Part shown: positions 1,009-14,431 of the stretch, piece after piece
Layout of the letters: each line of letters opens with the position of its first letter
How positions within the stretch are numbered: position 1 is the first letter of the stretch
Virus record (IMG/VR): IMGVR_UViG_2531839529_000011
Source: a virus
Taxonomy: Duplodnaviria; Heunggongvirae; Uroviricota; Caudoviricetes
Direction: 5' to 3' (one strand)
DNA length: 14,431 bases
Position numbers and translations under genes: made by a program
The notes under the pieces: generated by a model
What the model was told of the DNA's origin: nothing
The model's input: only the letters and a program-made list of their open reading frames with translations
Database searches by the model: none

Positions 1009-1083
1009 GTCCTCTTAGTTAAATGGATATAACGAGCCCCTCCTAAGGGCTAATTGCAGGTTCGATTCCTGCAGGGGACACTT
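1009..1083 (+). tRNA. argW: tRNA-Arg (anticodon CCU)
   Basis: Cloverleaf readable by eye: acceptor GTCCTCT pairs with AGGGGAC, anticodon loop CT-CCT-AA, T-arm GGTTCGATTCC, discriminator A at 1080. Matches E. coli argW as I recall it. The 3' CCA is not encoded (gene reads ACACTTT), consistent with the island junction at the tRNA 3' end. Confidence 0.85.
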
Positions 1084-1256
1084 TAAAGACCTTTCTCTAC
1101 ATTTCACTTCATTACATAACCACTTAAAAAAAACAGTAAGTTATCACCGAATCGGCCTGATTTTCATTTCAGTTAATTTCATGACATTACAACCTCGTGA
1201 TGGTATAAGTGATGGTATTCCCCAGTTCGATATGCAGATACCATCAATTTACCAAA

Positions 1257-2543
1257 ATGAGTACAGATATGGCCATTAATGTGCTTTCCCCCAAACAGAT
1301 AGAAAACGCCAAGCCGAAGACCAATGATTACAAACTTACCGATGGAGGGAGTTTGTATCTACTGGTACGAAAGACTGGTGGAAAATACTGGCGTATGAAT
1401 TATCGTTTTGATGGAAAACAAGTGACATTGGCATTAGGGGTCTACCCAGATGTCTCACTTGCAACAGCGCGGAAACGGCGTGATGAAGCCAGGCAACTAC
1501 TAGCCGATGGCCGTGATCCTCGCGAAGCAAAGAAACCCAAAAAGGAAGACCCAATTTCCCCCACGTTCGAGAGTGTTGCCAGAGAGTGGCATAGTGGAAC
1601 GATGGGGCATCCTGAGTGGAAAGAGATCACCCGTAAAAAAATTCTCCGAGAAATGGAAAACCACCTCTTTCCTGCCATCGGTTCAAAGCCTATCGATACG
1701 CTCAAAACCCGTGACTTGATGCCGATGCTGGTTGAGATGACTGAGAAAGGAATTGGTGCCACAACGAGCCGGGTAAAAACCACTATGACGAGCATCTTCC
1801 GTTATGCCGTGCAACGTGGAATTGTCGATTACAACCCTGCCCACGATCTAAAAGGTGCAATTACGGCCCCCAAAGTACGACATCGCCCCGCACTACCTCT
1901 CGAACGTTTACCTGAACTGTTAGCGAAAACGAGAAGTTACACGGGAAGACCATTGACTCGCCTAGCAGTTCTCTTTTCCCTGCACACTTTTGTGCGATCC
2001 AGCGAACTACGACATGCCAGATGGGAGGAGATCGACATTGAAAATGGGCTATGGACGATACCAGGACAACGTGAAGAGATCGCAGGGGTTAAATTCTCAG
2101 ATCGGGGTGCAAAGATGGGGGCTGCTCATTATGTCCCGCTATCTAGTCAGGCTATCGGGGTACTGGAGGATATAAGGAAAATCAGTGGTGAATATCTGCT
2201 GGTTTTCCCCGGTGACAGCAACCCATATAAACCGATGAGCGAAAACACAGTTAATAAAGCACTGCGAACGATGGGTTACGACACTCAAACTGATGTATGC
2301 TTACATGGGTTCAGGGCGATGGCCTGCTCTGCACTGACCGAATCAGGACTCTGGTCACGCGATGCAGTTGAACGGCAGATGAGTCACCAAGAAAGAAACG
2401 AAGTGCGGGCAGCATATGTGCATCTTGCGCAGCACATGCAGGAACGCCGCAGAATGATGCAATGGTGGTCTAATTATCTGGAACTAAATAAGGACGAATT
2501 TCATGCTCCTTATGACTTATCAGGTATTAACATTATCAATTAA
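1257..2543 (+). CDS. int: P4-type tyrosine integrase (site-specific recombinase)
   Basis: ORF 1209-2543 with a GTG at 1209; the likely start is ATG 1257 (MSTDMAINVLSPKQIENAKP...) or ATG 1269. N-terminal P4-integrase arm-binding signature (AKPK..YKLTDGGSLYLLV, WRMNYRFDGK). C-terminal catalytic region has HGFRAMA...R...VRAAYVH, the R/H-x-x-R/Y tyrosine recombinase motifs. Confidence 0.9.
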   Translation: MSTDMAINVLSPKQIENAKPKTNDYKLTDGGSLYLLVRKTGGKYWRMNYRFDGKQVTLALGVYPDVSLATARKRRDEARQLLADGRDPREAKKPKKEDPISPTFESVAREWHSGTMGHPEWKEITRKKILREMENHLFPAIGSKPIDTLKTRDLMPMLVEMTEKGIGATTSRVKTTMTSIFRYAVQRGIVDYNPAHDLKGAITAPKVRHRPALPLERLPELLAKTRSYTGRPLTRLAVLFSLHTFVRSSELRHARWEEIDIENGLWTIPGQREEIAGVKFSDRGAKMGAAHYVPLSSQAIGVLEDIRKISGEYLLVFPGDSNPYKPMSENTVNKALRTMGYDTQTDVCLHGFRAMACSALTESGLWSRDAVERQMSHQERNEVRAAYVHLAQHMQERRRMMQWWSNYLELNKDEFHAPYDLSGINIIN

Positions 2544-2573
2544 ATACTCTTATAATTTAAAACAGAGGTCATA

Positions 2574-2867
2574 ATGCAGCATTCAACAGAGAATGAAACT
2601 ATATTCTTAGGAAATCTATGGATTGACAAAAAAATACCACCATTAGAATATTGTTCATTTGAACGCGCTTCAAGACTATTAGAATGCGAGATTGATGATT
2701 TATTACACCTATACGAAATAGGCGCTTTTAATATCGCATTCAAGGCGGATGGACTTGCAGTTAGATTTAATGTTAATTTCCTCAATAAAAATCAGAAAGT
2801 GGAAATTGACTTAATTCATCCCGTATTAACTAATCAATCACTAGAGATGGAATTTTCAACAATATAG
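2574..2867 (+). CDS. Hypothetical protein, N-terminal segment of an AT-rich cargo gene (ends at in-frame TAG)
   Basis: ATG 2574 preceded by SD agagg; about 33% GC. Terminates at TAG 2865-2867; the same frame stays open from 2868 into the next ORF. Confidence 0.5.
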   Translation: MQHSTENETIFLGNLWIDKKIPPLEYCSFERASRLLECEIDDLLHLYEIGAFNIAFKADGLAVRFNVNFLNKNQKVEIDLIHPVLTNQSLEMEFSTI

Positions 2868-2954
2868 TATGACCTTAAAGATGATTCCTTTGAACATTTT
2901 GAAAATGGGCTTCAAATTATAGGATTTGCCTGTGGTATTTGGTACGCCGATGAT

Positions 2955-3455
2955 ATGATAAGTGACATAAAAAATGGATTAGCTATAGATCCAGATTATG
3001 AATTCAGGCTTAAACCGGTAAAAATACGAGATAATGTTTTGATGGCAACGGCCTCATATGAAGGAAATAAGGTCATTGATATTCCATTTGAAGATCTTCT
3101 TATCATGCGAAGAGATTTAGAGTTAATATGGAAATCAGTAAAAACTGGAATTCCTATGCCAAGTTTACTTACGAAAAGAATTTCATCTGAACCTAAAATC
3201 CCCAAGCGATTAAATAACACTGCTGAGCATCATGCAAAAAATAGGGAGGGGTTATTAAATGCAGCCATATATATATTAGCAAAATACCCAAGCGAATGTC
3301 GTGGTGAAAGAAAAGAGATAAGTCCTGAAAAGTGGACTAACGCCATAATTAAACATTTAGGAGAGCTACCTCCAATATTTATCACTAATGAACAAGAAAT
3401 CTTAAGAAAATTACGATTAGCGGTTAATCATGCGGGATTAAAACAAAAGGGGTAG
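2955..3455 (+). CDS. Hypothetical protein, C-terminal segment of the same AT-rich cargo gene (positional analogue of the gene between int and alpA in CP4-57-type islands)
   Basis: 166-aa ORF in the same frame as 2574-2867 with no stop between 2868 and 2954. Low GC. No family recognised. Confidence 0.5.
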   Translation: MISDIKNGLAIDPDYEFRLKPVKIRDNVLMATASYEGNKVIDIPFEDLLIMRRDLELIWKSVKTGIPMPSLLTKRISSEPKIPKRLNNTAEHHAKNREGLLNAAIYILAKYPSECRGERKEISPEKWTNAIIKHLGELPPIFITNEQEILRKLRLAVNHAGLKQKG

Positions 3456-3521
3456 ACTGAAACAATCTACAGGTAGAGTTGATTACACTACCTTCACAGC
3501 ATTTTGATATCCCCATAGTAT

Positions 3522-3549
3522 CTGCCGTGTTCATTACATAACACGGCAG
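3522..3549 (+). promoter_or_regulatory. Perfect 10-bp inverted repeat (CTGCCGTGTT / AACACGGCAG) with 8-nt loop CATTACAT, just upstream of the alpA start
   Basis: Read directly. It overlaps the expected alpA promoter/RBS region and may also terminate the upstream cargo gene. Confidence 0.4.
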
Positions 3550-3557
3550 GTAATTTC

Positions 3558-3773
3558 ATGACATTAAAAACTTATCCTATCACTGGACATGCCCGCCCAC
3601 GAGCTACTGCTGACTTTTTGCAAATAAGTACGGTTACTCTCTGGCGCTGGGAAAAGAACAATCCTGAATTTCCCAAATCTATACGCATTTCAAAACGGGT
3701 ATCTGTTTACGATGCACAAGAAATTAGGCAGTGGGTTAAAGCTCAATCAGCAGGATTGGAGGAAGTAGTGTAA
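3558..3773 (+). CDS. alpA: AlpA-family phage regulatory protein (MerR-like HTH; excision/int regulator)
   Basis: 71-aa ORF with the motif LQISTVTLWRWEKNNPEFPKSIRISKRVSVYDAQEIRQWV, typical of AlpA prophage regulators, in the canonical position downstream of a P4-type int. Confidence 0.85.
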   Translation: MTLKTYPITGHARPRATADFLQISTVTLWRWEKNNPEFPKSIRISKRVSVYDAQEIRQWVKAQSAGLEEVV

Positions 3774-4978: not shown

Positions 4979-5358
4979 ACCAGCCGCAGGTTTCCATTTT
5001 CCCGGCAGAAATGACCACCGCGCTTTACCGGCGGGCTATTGCTTCAGCATGGCGGCAGAAAATGCTGAACGAAACTGGTAGTGATCAGTATGGTCCGCAC
5101 AGCCTGACGGTGGAGCGTATTGAAATGGCCATTGCGCTGCATATCGAGTGCGTACTGATTAACGAGTACGGCGAAGTGCAGGGCGCCGCTGCCGCGCTGG
5201 CACTGCTGACTGACATGCTGGAGCCATCACTGCTGACCGCGCCGCCGGTACTGACCGCGCGCGGCTGTGAAGTGATGGCGGAGATGTACCGCACGCTTCC
5301 GGCGGCCTTTGATGACTTCTGCAGTACCGGTGTGACGTTGTATGAGGGGGAAGTATGA
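4975..5358 (+). CDS. Hypothetical protein (primase-operon small ORF 3)
   Basis: ATG 4975 with SD GGAGGTG; 127 aa; stop TGA 5356-5358 overlaps ATG 5355 (ATGA coupling to the primase's original start). Confidence 0.55.
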   Translation: MNQPQVSIFPAEMTTALYRRAIASAWRQKMLNETGSDQYGPHSLTVERIEMAIALHIECVLINEYGEVQGAAAALALLTDMLEPSLLTAPPVLTARGCEVMAEMYRTLPAAFDDFCSTGVTLYEGEV

Positions 5359-5420
5359 CAATACAGACGGTTACGCAGATTTCAGCCGCCGCACGGGGGA
5401 AATAGCCCGTTATTCTGCAG

Positions 5421-8027
5421 ATGCTGCGTATTGATGTACCTGAAAACGGCAGGCACGGCCCCTGCCCGAAATGTGGGGGCAAGGATCGTTTTCGCCTTGA
5501 TGACCTTGACGGGCGCGGGACGTGGATCTGCAGCCAGTGTGGCAATGGTGACGGTCTGGATCTGGTTAAGCTCGTAACCGGTTACAGCGTCAGAAAGGCT
5601 GCGCAGGAGGTGGCGCAGGTGCTTAATGTGCCGGATGTGCAGGAACTGCCTGTTAAGCCTGCCAGACAAAAAGCCCCTAAACGCGACATGGGTCTTACCG
5701 TGGCGGCGCTGATGAAAGAGAGCCACACGGGAGAAAGCGCCTATCTGACAGGAAAAGGGTTCGCCGGATACCCGGCCTCTCTGACCGGAAGCGTGCAGCA
5801 TATCAGCGGTAAGGATTTTCCTGCCGGTTCCCTGCTGTTACCACTCACGACCAACACCGGAGCCGTGACCGGTGCACAGCTTATCGCCCCGACGGGTGAA
5901 AAAAGCATACTGCCCGGCAGCACGATGAAAGGCGCGTTTGTGTCGCTCAGCCCGTTACCGTCTGAACCACCGGTACAGGTGGTGATTACCGAAGGTTACG
6001 CTACGGCGCTGACGGTAAGCCAGCTCACTGCCGGATGCGTAGTGGCTGCCATATCTGCGGGCAACCTGCCCAATGTGGCGCAGTCGCTGCGGGCACGCTG
6101 GCCTGAGGTAAAAATTATCATCGCCGGTGATAACGATTTTCAGGACGGGGGGGAGAATCCCGGCAGAGCCTTTGCTGAACGGGCGGCAAAAGCTGTTGGC
6201 GGCTGGATGACGCTGCCACCAGGAGAGATTAAGGCTGACTGGAATGACTTTCATCGGGAGCACGGTATTACCCGTGCCCGTGAAGCCTTTCGCAACGGTC
6301 TGGTACTGTGCGGGGAAGGCCGCACGCAACTGCCGCACGGGTTCCGTCTTACCCAGGAATATCTCTGGTATGAAAAGCAGGTACAGCGCAACGGTGAGAC
6401 GGAGATCCAGAACGTCAAAATATGCAGCCCGCTGCGCGTGACGGCAATCACCTGCGATGCCGATGGCGGTAACTTCGGACGACTGCTGGAATGGGAAGAT
6501 ACGTGGGGTGAGTGTCGCCGCTGGGCGATGCCGATGGAAATGCTGAGCGGCAGTGGTGAGGAACTGCGCCGGGTACTGCTGGTTAACGGGCTGTCTTATA
6601 TCAGCACCACCGGTGAGGCACGCGCACGCCTGATGGAATATATCTCACTGTGTAAACCGGAACGCCGCGTGACCTGCGTCAGTCGTACTGGCTGGCATGG
6701 TCAGGTTTACGTCCTGCAGGATGAGGTCAGCGGTGAAGGTGCAGAGGGTGTCATTCTCCAGACCACTTCCGTGCAGGGGCGTGATTTCCGCGTGTCGGGC
6801 ACAACAGAGGAATGGCGGGAGCATGTATCCCGCTACTGTACCGGCAACTCCCGCGTGGCATTTGCTGTCAGCCTGGCCTTTGCTGCACCACTGTTACGGC
6901 TGGTTGGTATGGACGGCGGCGGCTACCACCTAAAAGGGGAATCGACAGACGGTAAGACCACCACCATGAAAGCGGCAACCTCCGTCTGCGGCGGGCCTGA
7001 CTACTGGCAGACATGGCGGGCCACCGGCAACGCGCTGGAGGGATGCGCCAGCCGCCGCAACGATGCCGCCATGATGCTTGATGAGATCCGGGAAGTTGAC
7101 GGACGCGAGGCAGGCAATATCGCCTACATGCTGGCAAACGGTCAGGGCAAGGGCCGTGCCGGTACGGACGGTGAGCTGCGTACCCGTAAGCAGTGGCGCC
7201 TGTTGTTCTTTTCAACTGGCGAGTTGTCTCTGACCGAACATGCGGCAAAGGCCGGTGAGCGTACTTTTGCCGGGATGGAAGTCAGGATGATCCAGATCCC
7301 AAGCGATTCCGGGAAGTTTGGCGTTTTTGAGGAGCTGCACGGCTTCGACAGCGGCAAGGCTCTGGCAGAGCATCTTGAATGGGCCACGTCCTGCTACTAC
7401 GGTTCGCCGTTCCGGGAGTGGCTGAAAGCACTGACCGCTGATCTTAACGGACTAACGGCACAGGCAAAATCGCTGATGAAGGAATATGCTGCCGCCCTGA
7501 CTCCTAAAGATGCAGGCAATCAGGTGGGCCGGGCTGTGAACCGCTTTGCACTGGTGGCGATGGCAGGTGAACTGGCAACCCGTCTGGGTATCACCGGCTG
7601 GCCTGAGGGTGAAGCACTGCGGGCAACCCGCGTCTGCCTGAACGCATGGCTGAAAGATCGCGGGCACACCGCCAATCAGGAAGATATCGCCGCACTGGAG
7701 CAGGTTCGCAGTTTCTTTACCGCGAATCAGTACAGCCGCTTTGCAGACTGGTATGACGAGCGCAACCGCCCCGGCAATATGGTGGGCTGGCGCAGGGTGG
7801 AGAAAGGCAGTACCGCGCAGGGCACGGAAGCTGTCACTACGTTCTATGTCATGCCGTCCGGCTGGAAAGAAATCTGCAGGGGATTTGACCCGCGTAAGGT
7901 GGCGCGTCTGTGCGCAGATCGTGGATACCTGCTGCCCTCCACTGATGGCAAACTCCAGACAACCATTCGCCCGCCAGAGATGAATCCCCGCAGGCTCTAT
8001 GTCTTCAACAGCGAGGTGCCGGGTTAA
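5421..8027 (+). CDS. P4 alpha-type primase-helicase (zinc-binding primase N-terminus, TOPRIM, D5-like helicase with Walker A, C-terminal iteron-binding region); original N-terminus interrupted by in-frame TAG
   Basis: 868-aa ORF. CPKCGGKDRF...WICSQCGNGDG zinc ribbon; TOPRIM residues VITEGYATAL and IIAGDNDFQDGG; Walker A GESTDGKTT. An ATG at 5355 with strong SD GAGGGGG, coupled to the upstream stop, opens the same frame (MTIQTVTQISAAARGK) but hits TAG at 5403-5405; translation presumably restarts at ATG 5421. Confidence 0.9.
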   Translation: MLRIDVPENGRHGPCPKCGGKDRFRLDDLDGRGTWICSQCGNGDGLDLVKLVTGYSVRKAAQEVAQVLNVPDVQELPVKPARQKAPKRDMGLTVAALMKESHTGESAYLTGKGFAGYPASLTGSVQHISGKDFPAGSLLLPLTTNTGAVTGAQLIAPTGEKSILPGSTMKGAFVSLSPLPSEPPVQVVITEGYATALTVSQLTAGCVVAAISAGNLPNVAQSLRARWPEVKIIIAGDNDFQDGGENPGRAFAERAAKAVGGWMTLPPGEIKADWNDFHREHGITRAREAFRNGLVLCGEGRTQLPHGFRLTQEYLWYEKQVQRNGETEIQNVKICSPLRVTAITCDADGGNFGRLLEWEDTWGECRRWAMPMEMLSGSGEELRRVLLVNGLSYISTTGEARARLMEYISLCKPERRVTCVSRTGWHGQVYVLQDEVSGEGAEGVILQTTSVQGRDFRVSGTTEEWREHVSRYCTGNSRVAFAVSLAFAAPLLRLVGMDGGGYHLKGESTDGKTTTMKAATSVCGGPDYWQTWRATGNALEGCASRRNDAAMMLDEIREVDGREAGNIAYMLANGQGKGRAGTDGELRTRKQWRLLFFSTGELSLTEHAAKAGERTFAGMEVRMIQIPSDSGKFGVFEELHGFDSGKALAEHLEWATSCYYGSPFREWLKALTADLNGLTAQAKSLMKEYAAALTPKDAGNQVGRAVNRFALVAMAGELATRLGITGWPEGEALRATRVCLNAWLKDRGHTANQEDIAALEQVRSFFTANQYSRFADWYDERNRPGNMVGWRRVEKGSTAQGTEAVTTFYVMPSGWKEICRGFDPRKVARLCADRGYLLPSTDGKLQTTIRPPEMNPRRLYVFNSEVPG

Positions 8028-8427: not shown

Positions 8428-9171
8428 ATGAACAACACCGCAGTGAATAACAACCTTTCCACTTTTCCGGCTGTAACGCAGCGGGCACTGGAAACCATGA
8501 ACACAGCCAGAAACGCATGGCTTGAAGCACGTCGTCAGCAGAAAGCGGCAGCGGATAATATTGCGACAATCCGCCAGCGTCGCGCTGAAATGGAAGCCAC
8601 GACGAACACACTGAATGAGGAGTGGCGCACGCTGTTTCGTGAAAGTCAGGGCGTGGTCTCAAAGGAAATGAAAAAACTGCGCACGGAAATTGCGCTGGGA
8701 CGAGAAACGCTTGAGGATTTTGATGAGCTGCTGGCGGCTCAGGAAAGCGAAAATGCACTTTTGCCGCAGAAAGCTGCGGAATTAGCCGGAAAGTATATCC
8801 ACGCGCATAACATTCTTGTGGATATTCGCGCAAAACAAATCTGGGAAGATTTTATGCAGTCGCATGGAAAAGCGCTTATTCAGACGCTGAGCCTGCTTAA
8901 ATCCACAATGGGCCGGGAAGCCAGTGCCGTTGTGGGTGTGGTGAATTCAGTTAATGACCCGGACACAGTGCTGAAAGACTTTATTCATAAACATATCACC
9001 AGACCGGCTCTGGCTAACGATGCGATGCCTGAACAGGACCCGGTGTTTAAACTGGCGGGAGTTGCCCCGGATTATGCGGCGCGTCTGGATTTCAGTAATC
9101 AACTCTCTCCGGCAGCTATGCATAAAATAAAGGTTCGTCAGGAACTTGCTGAGAAGGAGAAAGCTGTATGA
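8428..9171 (+). CDS. sid: Sid/Psu-family late protein, most likely external scaffold / capsid-size determination protein Sid
   Basis: 247 aa (P4 Sid is about 244 aa), coiled-coil-rich, first gene behind the Delta-type late promoter. Shares the YI.(A/S)H ... DFMQ.HG.AL motif with Psu-family proteins. Stop overlaps the next start (ATGA 9168-9171). Confidence 0.55.
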   Translation: MNNTAVNNNLSTFPAVTQRALETMNTARNAWLEARRQQKAAADNIATIRQRRAEMEATTNTLNEEWRTLFRESQGVVSKEMKKLRTEIALGRETLEDFDELLAAQESENALLPQKAAELAGKYIHAHNILVDIRAKQIWEDFMQSHGKALIQTLSLLKSTMGREASAVVGVVNSVNDPDTVLKDFIHKHITRPALANDAMPEQDPVFKLAGVAPDYAARLDFSNQLSPAAMHKIKVRQELAEKEKAV

Positions 9172-9293
9172 CGGCCCGAGGCACACCTGACCAGGCACTT
9201 ACCAGTTTTCGGAATGCCCGTATTCTGTGGGCCGGACATAGTGAGACCCGAAAAGCCGTTGAACAACAGATAGCATCTCTCCTCGCTGCGTAA
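9168..9293 (+). pseudogene. psu: psu-like (polarity suppression protein) N-terminal fragment, truncated by the IS66-family insertion
   Basis: ATG 9168 with strong SD aaggag, translationally coupled to sid. Reading frame runs to the IS boundary at 9290 and stops at TAA 9291-9293 inside the IS terminal repeat. Confidence 0.55.
9282..9289. repeat. Left copy of the 8-bp target-site duplication CTCGCTGC flanking the IS66-family element
   Basis: Identical octamer immediately outside both IS ends. Confidence 0.8.
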
Positions 9294-9342
9294 CCGGCTC
9301 ATTTAAACCGTCTGGTCTGTTTCCTCCGGCTCTACAAAAATA

Positions 9343-10020
9343 ATGTCCATCATTTTTAATGGACACTATCGTATGAAACACCGGACCTGGATCACTGAAG
9401 CTTTACGTCTTCACTTTGAAGAACATTTACCCCGGGTTGTGGCCGGGCGTCGCCTGGGTGTACCAAAATCAACAGTTTGTAGTATGTTCGTGCGCTTTCG
9501 GAGAGCTGGCCTTTCGTGGCCTTTGCCCGCAGGCATGTCGGAGCAGGAACTTGATGCCTGCCTTTACGGACAATTTTCCACGGTACCAGTCGTACGTCCT
9601 GAAAGCACCGTTATATCCGAAGCCCCCGTGGTAAAAAAACGTCCCCGGCGGCCCAACTTCCCTTATGAGTTTAAAATCGCCTTAGTGGAGCAGTCACTGC
9701 AGCCCGGAGCCTGTGTGGCGCAGATCGCCCGGGAAAACGGAATCAACGATAACCTGCTCTTCAACTGGCGCCATCAATACCGGAAAGGTGGCCTGCTGCC
9801 TTCCGGAAAAAATATGCCGGCACTGCTTCCCGTGACGTTAACGCCGGAGCCGGATAATAAAATCCCGGCCCCCGCACAGGAACCAGAGCAGATAAATACA
9901 CCGTCCGACAGTCTGTGTTGTGAGCTGGTTCTGCCGGCCGGAACTCTCAGGCTTAAAGGTAAACTGACGCCGGCGTTATTACAGACACTTATCCGCGAAA
10001 TAAAAGGGAGCAGCCACTGA
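9343..10020 (+). CDS. tnpA: IS66-family accessory protein TnpA (orfA; HTH)
   Basis: 225-aa ORF; RRPNFPYEFKIALVEQSLQPGACVAQIARENGINDNLLFNWRHQYRKG is a transposase-type HTH. Start uncertain (ATG 9343 or 9373; neither has a strong SD). Stop TGA overlaps the tnpB start. Confidence 0.7.
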   Translation: MSIIFNGHYRMKHRTWITEALRLHFEEHLPRVVAGRRLGVPKSTVCSMFVRFRRAGLSWPLPAGMSEQELDACLYGQFSTVPVVRPESTVISEAPVVKKRPRRPNFPYEFKIALVEQSLQPGACVAQIARENGINDNLLFNWRHQYRKGGLLPSGKNMPALLPVTLTPEPDNKIPAPAQEPEQINTPSDSLCCELVLPAGTLRLKGKLTPALLQTLIREIKGSSH

Positions 10021-10367
10021 TGATATCTCTCCCTGCAGGTTCGCGTATCTGGCTGGTTGCAGGTATCACCGATATGCGAAATGGCTTTAACGGCCTGGCA
10101 TCAAAAGTTCAGAACGTCCTGAAGGATGACCCGTTCTCCGGACACCTGTTCATCTTCCGCGGACGCCGGGGTGACCAGATAAAAGTGTTGTGGGCTGACA
10201 GTGACGGACTGTGCCTCTTCACCAAACGCCTGGAGCGGGGCCGCTTCGTCTGGCCAGTCACCCGTGACGGCAAGGTGCACCTTACTCCGGCTCAGTTATC
10301 CATGCTTCTTGAAGGTATCAACTGGAAGCACCCGAAACGAACGGAACGCGCTGGAATCCGCATATAA
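10020..10367 (+). CDS. tnpB: IS66-family TnpB (orfB)
   Basis: 115 aa MISLPAGSRIWLVAGITDMRNGFNGLA... recognised as the conserved IS66 orfB product; start overlaps the orfA stop (TGATG). Confidence 0.85.
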   Translation: MISLPAGSRIWLVAGITDMRNGFNGLASKVQNVLKDDPFSGHLFIFRGRRGDQIKVLWADSDGLCLFTKRLERGRFVWPVTRDGKVHLTPAQLSMLLEGINWKHPKRTERAGIRI

Positions 10368-10386
10368 CCCGTTGTAAAGTGAGGAT

Positions 10387-11958
10387 ATGGACACCTCACT
10401 TGCTCATGAGAACGCCCGCCTGCGGGCACTGTTGCAGACGCAACAGGACACCATCCGCCAGATGGCTGAATACAACCGCCTGCTCTCACAGCGGGTGGCG
10501 GCTTATGCTTCCGAAATCAACCGGCTGAAGGCGCTGGTTGCGAAACTGCAACGTATGCAGTTCGGTAAAAGCTCAGAAAAACTTCGTGCAAAAACCGAAC
10601 GGCAGATACAGGAAGCACAGGAGCGAATCAGCGCACTTCAGGAAGAAATGGCGGAAACGCTGGGTGAGCAATATGACCCGGTACTGCCATCCGCCCTGCG
10701 CCAGTCTTCAGCCCGTAAACCGTTACCGGCCTCACTTCCCCGTGAAACCCGGGTTATCCGGCCGGAAGAGGAATGCTGTCCTGCCTGTGGTGGTGAACTC
10801 AGTTCTCTGGGATGTGATGTGTCAGAGCAACTGGAGCTTATCAGCAGCGCCTTTAAGGTTATCGAAACACAACGTCCGAAACAGGCCTGTTGCCGGTGCG
10901 ACCATATCGTGCAGGCACCAGTACCTTCAAAACCCATTGCACGCAGTTATGCCGGAGCGGGGCTTCTGGCCCATGTTGTCACCGGGAAATATGCAGACCA
11001 TCTGCCGTTATACCGCCAGTCAGAAATATACCGTCGTCAGGGAGTGGAGCTGAGCCGTGCCACACTGGGGCGCTGGACAGGTGCTGTTGCTGAACTGCTG
11101 GAGCCGCTGTATGACGTCCTGCGCCAGTATGTGCTGATGCCCGGTAAAGTCCATGCTGATGATATCCCCGTCCTGGTCCAGGAGCCGGGCAGCGGTAAAA
11201 CCCGGACAGCCCGGCTGTGGGTCTACGTCCGTGATGACCGTAACGCCGGTTCACAGATGCCCCCGGCGGTCTGGTTCGCGTACAGTCCGGACCGGAAAGG
11301 TATCCATCCACAAAATCACCTGGCCGGTTACAGCGGTGTGCTTCAGGCCGATGCTTACGGTGGTTACCGGGCGTTATACGAATCCGGCAGAATAACGGAA
11401 GCCGCGTGTATGGCTCATGCCCGGAGAAAAATCCACGATGTGCATGCAAGAGCGCCCACCTACATCACCACGGAAGCCCTGCAGCGTATCGGTGAACTGT
11501 ATGCCATCGAGGCAGAGGTCCGGGGCTGTTCAGCAGAACAGCGTCTGGCGGCAAGAAAAGCCAGAGCCGCGCCACTGATGCAGTCACTGTATGACTGGAT
11601 ACAGCAACAGATGAAAACACTGTCGCGTCACTCAGATACGGCAAAAGCGTTCGCATACCTGCTGAAACAGTGGGATGCACTGAACGTGTACTGCAGTAAT
11701 GGCTGGGTGGAAATCGACAACAACATCGCAGAGAACGCCTTACGGGGAGTGGCCGTAGGCCGGAAAAACTGGATGTTCGCGGGTTCCGACAGCGGTGGTG
11801 AACATGCGGCGGTGTTGTACTCGCTGATCGGCACATGCCGTCTGAACAATGTGGAGCCAGAAAAGTGGCTGCGTTACGTCATTGAACATATCCAGGATTG
11901 GCCGGCAAACCGGGTACGCGATCTGTTGCCCTGGAAAGTTGATCTGAGCTCTCAGTAA
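10387..11958 (+). CDS. tnpC: IS66-family transposase TnpC (orfC)
   Basis: 523 aa with N-terminal leucine-zipper-like coiled coil, CPACGG...CCRC zinc-finger region and the IS66 DDE core. Recognised IS66 transposase family. Confidence 0.9.
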
Positions 11959-11988
11959 ATATCAATACGGTTCTGACGAGTCGCTTAC

Positions 11989-11996
11989 CTCGCTGC
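11989..11996. repeat. Right copy of the 8-bp target-site duplication CTCGCTGC
   Basis: Identical to 9282-9289, immediately after the right IS end (...CGCTTAC at 11988). Confidence 0.8.
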
Positions 11997-12967: not shown

Positions 12968-14431
12968 CTACCCATGACATTTTTTGAATTTTTTTCCTGA
13001 GCCACAATAGCAAGGCTCATTTCTTCCCATTTTTTTTTCATTATTAACTATAGGGAATGTAGACATATATGATGTCGGCTTAGGCAAGATGTCTGTAAGA
13101 ACGCTATACTCCTTCATGGATTTTTTCGCTAATAAGCGCTCATCCTTTGTAAGTGGCTCATCAAACTTACAATAAACAACATCTTCAGAACGGCCCTCAG
13201 AATCTTTGCTTTCCGTTGCAATAATTATCAACTTCTTAATTTGACTGTATTTATACTTCGCCACTAGTGCATACATTTGCACGCAAGAAAAACGCTCCAA
13301 TCTATATTTTTCATATGATAACCCTTCATCACGCGGAAAGAACAAAAAAATATAATATTTGCCTTTTTCGTCAATCGACTCAACAATCCTAGAACTTCTT
13401 CTATTAGTAGGAACCTGTTTGAACTTTTCTATAAATGCCTTAGAAAGATGATATCTTGACACTCTGCTTTCTGCTGCCAGTTGTCTAACTGTTTCCTCAT
13501 GACTATGAAAGTCATTTTCTATACCCAAACCTACAGTTGCAGTAAGAATTGATTCCGAAAGTCTCTGTATCATTTCATCCCAAAACACACTTCCTTTTTT
13601 CATTGCCTTGTAATAATCATACTGAGGAGATTTTTTTAACACTTCCCACTCATTTTCTGCTATTTGCACAAATGTATTTTCAGGTACCAATTTCTCATCT
13701 ACAATCACCCCATGCCCGCTCAAATATGCAGCCAAAGTATCATCTTCTCCTGGACTTAATCTCAGAAGGCCAGAACGGACAACACGTTCCTTCTCTTTCA
13801 AGTAACTAACAAAGTCAGTAATTGTATCTAACTCCGACAATAAGAGATTTAATGACAATTCATCTAACACATGAACAAATGTTTTATTTGGATAAATATC
13901 TCCAATGGAAAAAGGTTGCTCCATACTTTCCTTTATTCCAAATGAGAAAACATTCATGAGAGTACCAGAACTCCCTTCAGCTATACGTGAAAAAAAATTA
14001 GATGCAGGAACCGAACTATTATTGGTTACAGCGATAAGGAAAAACCTCATATCTCTATTTATTTTAACTGGAAAGGGAACTTTGCATTTTTTATCTAAGA
14101 ACAATCGTCCATGATGATCTTTTAAAAACTTCTCTGCCCCATGTAACTGAACAGCCGATTCAGTTATGGATCTTTTAAACCATCTTTTCCATGCTATAGA
14201 AACTTCAATCTCTTCGTTAAAGTTAATATCCTTATCTGAAAATAAAATCACATTATCTTCAAAAACAACTAATAAATCACACACCTCCTTCCCCGATTTG
14301 TTTTTAGAAAGCCCTTCATCACTATACACATTAGGATATGACCATAAACCAATAAACGCACTATTAGCCAGTTCTATTAATCTTTTTTCAGTTTGATTAA
14401 CTCCCTGCCCTTTGTTAATCACTTTTAACAT
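12968..14431 (-). CDS. 487-aa protein of unknown function with C-terminal SEC-C zinc-binding motif; low-GC cargo in the P4-type hotspot position (candidate defence protein)
   Basis: Complete ORF whose ATG is the last three bases of the window. C-terminus ...[17 protein letters not shown] is a canonical SEC-C motif (as at the SecA C-terminus and in YecA). About 30-33% GC against about 55-63% in the backbone. No family recognised for the body. Confidence 0.8.

Follow-up and report, generated by a model that had tools for sequence, protein, structure and literature searches.

The stretch of DNA analysed here, called the window below, is the whole of the 14,431-nucleotide (nt) IMG/VR virus record IMGVR_UViG_2531839529_000011, assigned to the Caudoviricetes. 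It is a piece of Escherichia coli chromosome that runs from yfdC through tRNA-Arg(CCT) into a P4-like satellite prophage. Between the integrase gene (int) and alpA of this satellite lies an AT-rich gene, here named X (positions 2574-3455), that appears in the window as two consecutive open reading frames (ORFs). An original prediction, made from the letters of the sequence, proposed that these ORFs were a single gene of about 293 codons struck by one nonsense mutation, or else a gene relying on readthrough. The first of these proposals is borne out by the comparison with close relatives, in which the interval is a continuous 882-nt orthologue with TGG at codon 98, and we conclude that 2574-3455 is one satellite gene broken by a recent G to A nonsense change, that is, a young pseudogene. 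The interrupted frame is made up as follows.

2574..2867 (+): upstream ORF of 97 amino acids (aa) with an ATG start, WP_432704411.1, in which the predicted winged-helix domain is kept (ORF list and fold assignment)
2865..2867 (+): TAG in place of TGG (Trp98), a G2866A transition (comparison with relatives)
2955..3455 (+): downstream ORF of 166 aa with an ATG start, WP_001760177.1, corresponding to the C-terminal 57% of X (ORF list)

One reading frame with a derived amber codon

Translation of 2574-3455 in a single frame gave 293 sense codons, one internal stop (codon 98, the TAG at 2865-2867) and a terminal TAG, which confirms that the two ORFs share one frame and that this TAG is all that separates them. 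The 29 codons from 2868 to 2954 are free of stops. With the base composition of X itself, an open stretch of this length is expected by chance with p = 0.086, so that the argument from improbability goes in the direction that had been supposed but is somewhat weaker than the few percent first estimated. A 293-codon frame with one stop at most was found in none of 20,000 composition-matched shuffles. The split ORF pair is therefore far beyond chance, and the comparative evidence provided by the continuous orthologues is decisive over the statistics. The guanine-plus-cytosine (GC) content of X is 33.6%, and the GC profile stays at 32-35% across 2550-3450, against 50-62% over most of the element.

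In the first three E. coli relatives compared, the interval is an uninterrupted 882-nt coding sequence (CDS) annotated as 'hypothetical protein' (WP_001164862.1, WP_001164861.1 and WP_001164794.1), and strains 025542-1 and ATCC 43896 also carry X as an uninterrupted CDS of that length. Inside X, the closest relative differs from the window by one base, the G2866A change that turns TGG into TAG. The orthologues of Salmonella, Pantoea and metagenomic origin, which share 65-94% identity, likewise have an unbroken length of 293 aa, and X is intact in six of the seven close copies present on IMG/VR contigs. Codon 98 is TGG in near relatives and ATT or CTT in distant ones. The ratio of nonsynonymous to synonymous substitution (dN/dS), determined pairwise among orthologues, was 0.08-0.25 for codons 1-97 and 0.09-0.18 for codons 99-293, and purifying selection on either side of the stop indicates that both halves belong to one protein. 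The alignment of homologues is continuous across the TAG position, and no naturally split homologue was found among the relatives examined.

A 41-mer centred on the TAG at 2865-2867 rendered no matches in 5,426 complete E. coli genomes, while the same 41-mer with TGG is present in 66 of them. In public collections, the TAG allele of X was found on at least 24 contigs. The exact 97-aa product is encoded on 23 contigs and the exact 166-aa product on 18, and when the 868-aa product of the alpha primase gene is included the exact products are found on 18-26 contigs. The 166-aa protein WP_001760177.1 is also EMX93064.1 of E. coli 2720900. Moreover, three independent assemblies (GCA_000355175.1, GCA_049988505.1 and GCA_003980805.1) are identical to the window over 10-13 kb, E. 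coli 2720900 being among the assemblies that match. The amber allele has thus become fixed in one clonal lineage, to which this strain belongs. The three identical assemblies and the contigs carrying the allele rule out a sequencing error at the TAG, which the original prediction had considered, as well as a planted mutation. An artefact of nanopore methylation motifs was rejected as well, since neither a Dam nor a Dcm motif is common to the two amber sites of the window (the second is described below) and short-read assemblies carry the allele as well. In RefSeq the halves are entered as two distinct hypothetical proteins, as would be expected if the TAG were an error or the two ORFs were naturally separate genes. 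With the same allele in these independent assemblies and contigs, and with homologues that are all single ORFs of ~270-350 aa, the likelihood of either is close to nil.

Products of the broken gene and companion lesions

The upstream ORF is preceded by a good Shine-Dalgarno sequence (AGAGG, 2563-2567). Translation from this ribosome binding site (RBS) would end at codon 98 and release a 97-aa fragment that would retain the winged helix and lack the middle and C-terminal domains, so that the amber leaves the predicted DNA-binding head and removes the rest of X. No Shine-Dalgarno sequence was found upstream of ATG 2955, a start that sits 88 nt beyond the stop, and for these reasons the downstream 166-codon ORF would be re-initiated at trace levels at most.

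Over ~11.7 kb of sequence outside insertion sequences (IS), the window differs from 025542-1 and ATCC 43896 by exactly two bases, and both differences turn TGG into TAG. Besides the amber in X, two lesions were identified by comparison with the relatives.

5403..5405 (+): second TGG to TAG change (G5404A), at Trp17 of the alpha primase; in the window the ORF restarts at ATG 5421
9290..11989 (+): ISCro1 (IS66 family) inside psu, with an 8-bp target duplication (also by Pfam)

The alpha W17amber allele was absent from all the complete E. coli genomes searched, and the alpha amber is found in the same clone, in the form of the 868-aa product EMX93069.1. ATG 5421 lies in frame six codons past the alpha amber and could permit the synthesis of an N-terminally shortened primase. 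A copy of ISCro1 is present in delta in ATCC 43896 and 504838, ~560 bp away and in the opposite orientation, while 025542-1 has no copy; the copies in psu and delta could have arisen by independent insertions or by a local hop. The lineage-specific changes of this satellite copy (X W98amber, alpha W17amber and psu::ISCro1) are all gene-disrupting. Depending on the mutation spectrum that is assumed, random mutation would make both of two single-nucleotide changes nonsense with a probability of 6e-4 to 2.4e-3, in a test that is post hoc. Other lineages have lost X independently: E. coli E41 and ETEC1739, both from pigs, have an IS1 in the gene, and in one IMG/VR contig (L033, 6001-6881) two base pairs inserted close to codon 235 shift the frame. 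The lesions of the window are most simply read as the outcome of selection for inactivating the satellite, or at any rate of a rapid fixation of its inactivation.

It could be the case that the amber was selected for an altered function, with the 97-aa winged-helix fragment, perhaps together with a re-initiated 166-aa fragment, acting as a truncated or dominant-negative regulator. The fragment keeps the entire predicted DNA-binding domain as well as the RBS, the excess of nonsense changes suggests selection, and stand-alone proteins made up of the C-terminal domain only do exist (97-131 aa; e.g. P0069, 97 aa). We consider such useful split products improbable, given the position and context of ATG 2955, the destruction of X by IS1 or frameshift in other lineages, and the lesions in alpha and psu, which fit a general inactivation.

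Still less probable, in our view, is a functional amber, in which full-length X (and alpha primase) would continue to be made through a suppressor tRNA of the host or helper, or by readthrough, giving conditional expression. That the sole two point differences are both Trp TGG to amber changes, in two otherwise conserved genes, and that many isolates of the clone have kept the allele, would be consistent with it. However, all the relatives have a sense codon at the position of the X amber, so that it is no conserved programmed feature, and the readthrough option of the original prediction is disfavoured by a TAG that is derived and clone-specific. No suppressor tRNA was found in the 14-kb window, whose sole tRNA is tRNA-Arg(CCT), and the IS in psu of the same element points to decay rather than to regulation. 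UAG followed by U is an efficient release factor 1 (RF1) stop in E. coli, which also counts against readthrough.

Recurrent inactivation of satellite genes has been documented in decaying P4-like satellites (Moura de Sousa and Rocha 2021, PMC8628076). The element in the window resembles these in that it combines int, alpA, alpha primase, sid/psu and delta with premature stops and an IS. In the described satellites it is alpA that is frequently pseudogenised, whereas in the window alpA is undamaged and the lesions are in X, alpha and psu. The amber in X, the amber in alpha and the IS in psu are the grounds on which this satellite copy is taken to be under inactivation. The explanation that best accounts for the whole, and which we hold to be very likely, is that of one gene with a derived, clonal amber in a satellite under inactivation; an accessory role of the intact protein to Int and AlpA is a more tentative part of it.

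The int-X-alpA interval and its setting

The element carrying X is a P4-like phage satellite integrated at argW. The characteristic satellite gene set is co-localised in it (integrase, Phage_AlpA, Zn_Ribbon_Prim/Toprim/DUF927, two Psu-family genes and Ogr_Delta, by Pfam and RefSeq), and its closest complete genomes are those of the human isolates 504838, ATCC 43896 and 025542-1, which are of the enterotoxigenic E. coli (ETEC) type. X is separated from int by 30 nt and from alpA by 102 nt. The remaining features of the window are listed here in order.

1-933: yfdC, chromosomal flank of the satellite
1009..1081 (+): tRNA-Arg(CCT), the argW gene beside yfdC that is the integration site (tRNA detection and RefSeq annotation of relatives)
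1269..2543 (+): int, P4-type tyrosine integrase (Pfam Arm-DNA-bind_3, Phage_int_M and Phage_integrase; RefSeq annotation)
2574..3455 (+): X, 293 codons, a pseudogene here with one internal amber (continuous orthologues; the intact allele is RefSeq WP_001164862.1, 'hypothetical protein')
3558..3773 (+): alpA, AlpA-family regulator/excisionase gene (Pfam Phage_AlpA, E = 1.6e-7)
Between alpA and alpha primase: icd-like gene, then DUF5375 gene (Pfam/RefSeq)
5355-8027 in relatives (+): alpha primase, TOPRIM/DUF927 (Pfam, RefSeq)
8428-9171: sid-like Psu-family gene (Pfam/RefSeq)
After the sid-like gene: psu, which carries ISCro1, then delta (Pfam/RefSeq)
12968-14431 (minus strand): AT-rich SEC-C/YecA-family gene, 487 aa (Pfam/RefSeq)

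The SEC-C/YecA-family gene at the end of the window has a GC content of 32-38% and occupies the canonical P4 variable hotspot past delta. Its matches in PADLOC are confined to the C-terminal SEC-C zinc motif that is common to the E2 and PDC-S12 models.

The order int, X, alpA, on one strand, was found in all of 11 distinct contexts (11/11), with X located 18-97 nt from a P4-type integrase and ~100 nt before alpA. The gene order here differs from that of P4, the genes being all co-directional. The contexts comprise elements at argW in E. coli, Salmonella and two metagenomic or Pantoea-like relatives, elements adjacent to yicC in E. coli, Yersinia, Morganella, Photorhabdus, Intestinirhabdus and Pectobacterium, and one adjacent to der in Klebsiella. 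A locus search carried out with a narrow alignment of X rendered three species-representative loci. Elements that carry X have primases of either the DUF927 or the D5 type. In other E. coli P4-like satellites the sequence shared with this element begins only at alpA or icd, which implies that int and X travel together.

In spite of this constant position, the sequence of X varies widely. The comparison covered loci L005, L008, L011, L015, L018 and L019 and 2574-3455 of the window. Among yicC-site elements with 77-90% identity between their integrases, X was 17-62% identical in the N-terminus and 22-55% in the middle, and its C-terminal domain either had 66-88% identity or had been exchanged for another. 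The comparison shows a shuffling of modules within a fixed int-alpA frame. Across eight elements, the identities of the N-terminal and C-terminal parts of X did not show co-variation with those of Int or AlpA. The identity of the middle region was nominally correlated with that of Int (Spearman 0.39, p = 0.04) and with that of AlpA (Spearman 0.57, p = 0.001) in these elements, correlations that shared ancestry could explain. The original prediction had taken the low GC content as the mark of cargo distinct from the backbone. The low GC and the mosaic sequence are indeed there, but the supposed distinctness is only partly borne out, given a linkage to int and alpA that is stable in every context found, in several genera and at three attachment (att) sites. 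X is not random cargo, yet it is strikingly mosaic.

Several putative control sites were observed around the three genes. The 13-mer TTCAT[T/G]ACAT[A/T]A[C/A] (TTCATKACATWAM boxes) occurs four times in the window, always on the plus strand, as detected by a pattern scan.

1108-1120 and 1178-1190 (+): 13-mer boxes in the spacer between the tRNA gene and int
3530-3542 and 3555-3567 (+): 13-mer boxes just before or over the alpA start

About 0.14 copies would be expected by chance, although the copies themselves supplied the pattern. Close relatives keep the boxes, which could be binding sites for AlpA, Int or X. A hairpin with a perfect 13-bp stem and an 8-nt loop is located just 5' of alpA (3519-3552), its 3' arm covering the likely Shine-Dalgarno sequence of that gene. 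The region 3456-3575 has a folding energy of -31.1 kcal/mol (z = -4.6), and the hairpin is kept in the Salmonella orthologue and absent from distant elements; it may provide translational or termination control of alpA. The 3' end of int contains a near-consensus sigma-70-like site (2527-2556; TTAACA, 18 nt, TATAAT; 11 of 12 matches), which is 18 nt upstream of the X start codon. Since a scan of the AT-rich stretch gave 6 such sites against 6.5 expected from shuffles, it may be a chance occurrence.

The intact X protein and its possible role

The family to which X belongs is large and has remained without a name. As the original prediction had anticipated, curated libraries do not recognise it: intact X had no match in Pfam even at E <= 10, and none in NCBIfam or PADLOC (PADLOC-DB 2.0), while 60 of its relatives had no match in Pfam or PADLOC. 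An exhaustive search with a hidden Markov model (HMM) nevertheless rendered 566 clusters at 50% identity (E <= 1e-3), some of them matching phrog_7144, so that the statement that no family could be recognised holds for curated libraries only. Nearly all of the best 150 of the 566 clusters are 260-380 aa long, with few short fragments, and the named members are all 'hypothetical' proteins of Enterobacterales. Against PHROGs, intact X itself gave a weak match only (E = 0.11), and 21 of the 60 relatives matched phrog_7144, a family of unknown function. No papers were found in a literature search for the accessions of X or for phrog_7144. No homologue of X was detected by tblastn in 50,697 phage records, from which it follows that P4 itself is without X.

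Alignment divides the family proteins into three modules: an N-terminal one with the conserved motif P-x-x-E-Y-C-x-L-x-R-A-A-x-L-L-x-C-x-x-x-D-L-x-H, a middle that varies, and a C-terminal domain whose conservation is strong. The two modules to which a position could be given are the following.

2637..2738 (+): putative Xis/AlpA/MerR-type winged helix-turn-helix, ~residues 22-55 (fold comparison)
3216..3443 (+): helical C-terminal domain of ~80 aa with the motifs E-H/R-H-A-x-N-R-E, Y-P-x-E-C-R-G and S-P-E-K-W (alignment; no Pfam match)

The predicted N-terminal winged-helix fold can be superposed on Xis or AlpA structures. In a profile-profile comparison (hhalign) with the satellites' own AlpA proteins, the helix-turn-helix (HTH) aligned in register over 42 columns (probability 72.5%, E = 3.2e-5), and X did not reach the Pfam thresholds of HTH_17 or Phage_AlpA. 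Compared with excisionases of the AlpA, Vis, Xis and TorI types and with winged-helix proteins of the MerR superfamily, X is four times longer and has two extra domains, and it differs from AlpA-type excisionases also in that a separate, bona fide alpA adjoins it. The middle is predicted to be beta-rich, and the C-terminal domain, modelled separately, had a predicted local distance difference test (pLDDT) score of 70.6. Neither of these parts had an informative structural neighbour, and no recognisable effector fold was seen in the C-terminal domain. Foldseek gave no match in BFVD at E <= 0.001, a sequence search of the PDB with profiles of the X family gave noise only, and when the C-terminal domain by itself was used in a word-index search, five fragments only were retrieved.

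Two known int-alpA intervals can be compared with that of X. In CP4-57 of E. coli K-12, an island with a P4-type integrase, the interval holds yfjH, which is likewise AT-rich and of unknown function, and the likeness of position to which the original prediction had drawn attention is real. It does not extend to kinship, since yfjH lies on the strand opposite to intA and alpA and YfjH matches X by BLASTP with E = 1.6 only, and homology between the two was rejected. In the Vibrio satellites known as PICMI, integrase-overlapping or -contiguous genes (iolg/icg) of 13 unrelated families, of unknown function, are found next to int (Nat Commun 2024, PMC10803314), and the iolg gene between int and alpA is needed together with both of them for helper-induced excision of PICMI115 (PMC10803314). 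X and iolg/icg are alike by position, directly past int and before alpA on the same strand of a primase-encoding satellite, and both are highly diverse. They differ in that iolg overlaps int whereas X is 18-97 nt away from it, and in their hosts, Vibrionaceae and Enterobacterales, respectively.

The winged-helix fold, the fixed int-X-alpA synteny, the lack of any match to defence models and the PICMI precedent together suggest that intact X might be a DNA-binding accessory or specificity factor of an Int/AlpA switch controlling excision or induction of the satellite, an assignment that we put forward as tentative. In this model, DNA would be bound by the Xis/AlpA-type winged helix at the N-terminus, specificity would come from the variable middle, and the conserved C-terminal domain would touch a partner that is itself conserved. 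Three observations weigh against this account of X and of its inactivation. It is an odd coincidence that one element should carry two Trp to amber changes; no curated family in Pfam, NCBIfam or PADLOC matches X; and Int can be 90% identical where the N-terminus of X is 20% identical, a divergence that would suit a specificity, sensor or arms-race protein better than a recombination cofactor.

It is possible, at a somewhat lower likelihood than the accessory role, that intact X acts outside the excision switch, as a helper-sensing master repressor with a logic like that of Stl or as an anti-phage or exclusion factor encoded by one gene that the satellite carries in a second variable slot. Its AT-richness, the extreme mosaicism between near-identical integrases and the combination of an HTH with a variable domain would be in line with this, and satellites are known to carry defence genes (PMC9122126; bioRxiv 10.64898/2026.02.27.708500). 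On the other hand, none of the 60 family members matched PADLOC, X was not found outside the int-alpA slot in any of the 11 contexts, it is co-directional with int and alpA whereas stl is divergent, and its C-terminal domain of ~80 aa is without a recognisable effector fold. A doubtful extension of the accessory role, to which we would give about as much credence as to a repressor or defence factor, is that X is an unrecognised, modular third component of the Int/AlpA switch of enterobacterial phage satellites, in which a winged helix, a swappable specificity domain and a conserved C-terminal domain for partner binding are combined and the variable parts choose the trigger signal or the DNA for excision, and that the twin ambers and the IS record a selection acting on the host to disarm the satellite. 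If this were true, X would be a fitness-relevant active gene and not passive cargo.

The split itself is routine genome decay, and the interval 2574-3455 holds a young pseudogene of an ordinary kind, in a satellite undergoing decay, of modest interest for the uncharacterised int-linked family that it represents and for the three disabling lesions. In annotation, WP_432704411.1 and WP_001760177.1 should become one entry, marked as a pseudogene of WP_001164862.1. The presence of two ambers without any other point change, together with the IS, constitutes a small natural experiment that suggests selection against an active satellite. The more useful result is intact X, a sizeable family of Enterobacterales with no curated domain and no published function, in a fixed slot between Int and AlpA that is shared by P4-like and other primase-encoding satellites. 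If X plays a role like that of the PICMI iolg gene, it would offer a tractable E. coli system in which to study how satellites couple the sensing of a helper to excision.

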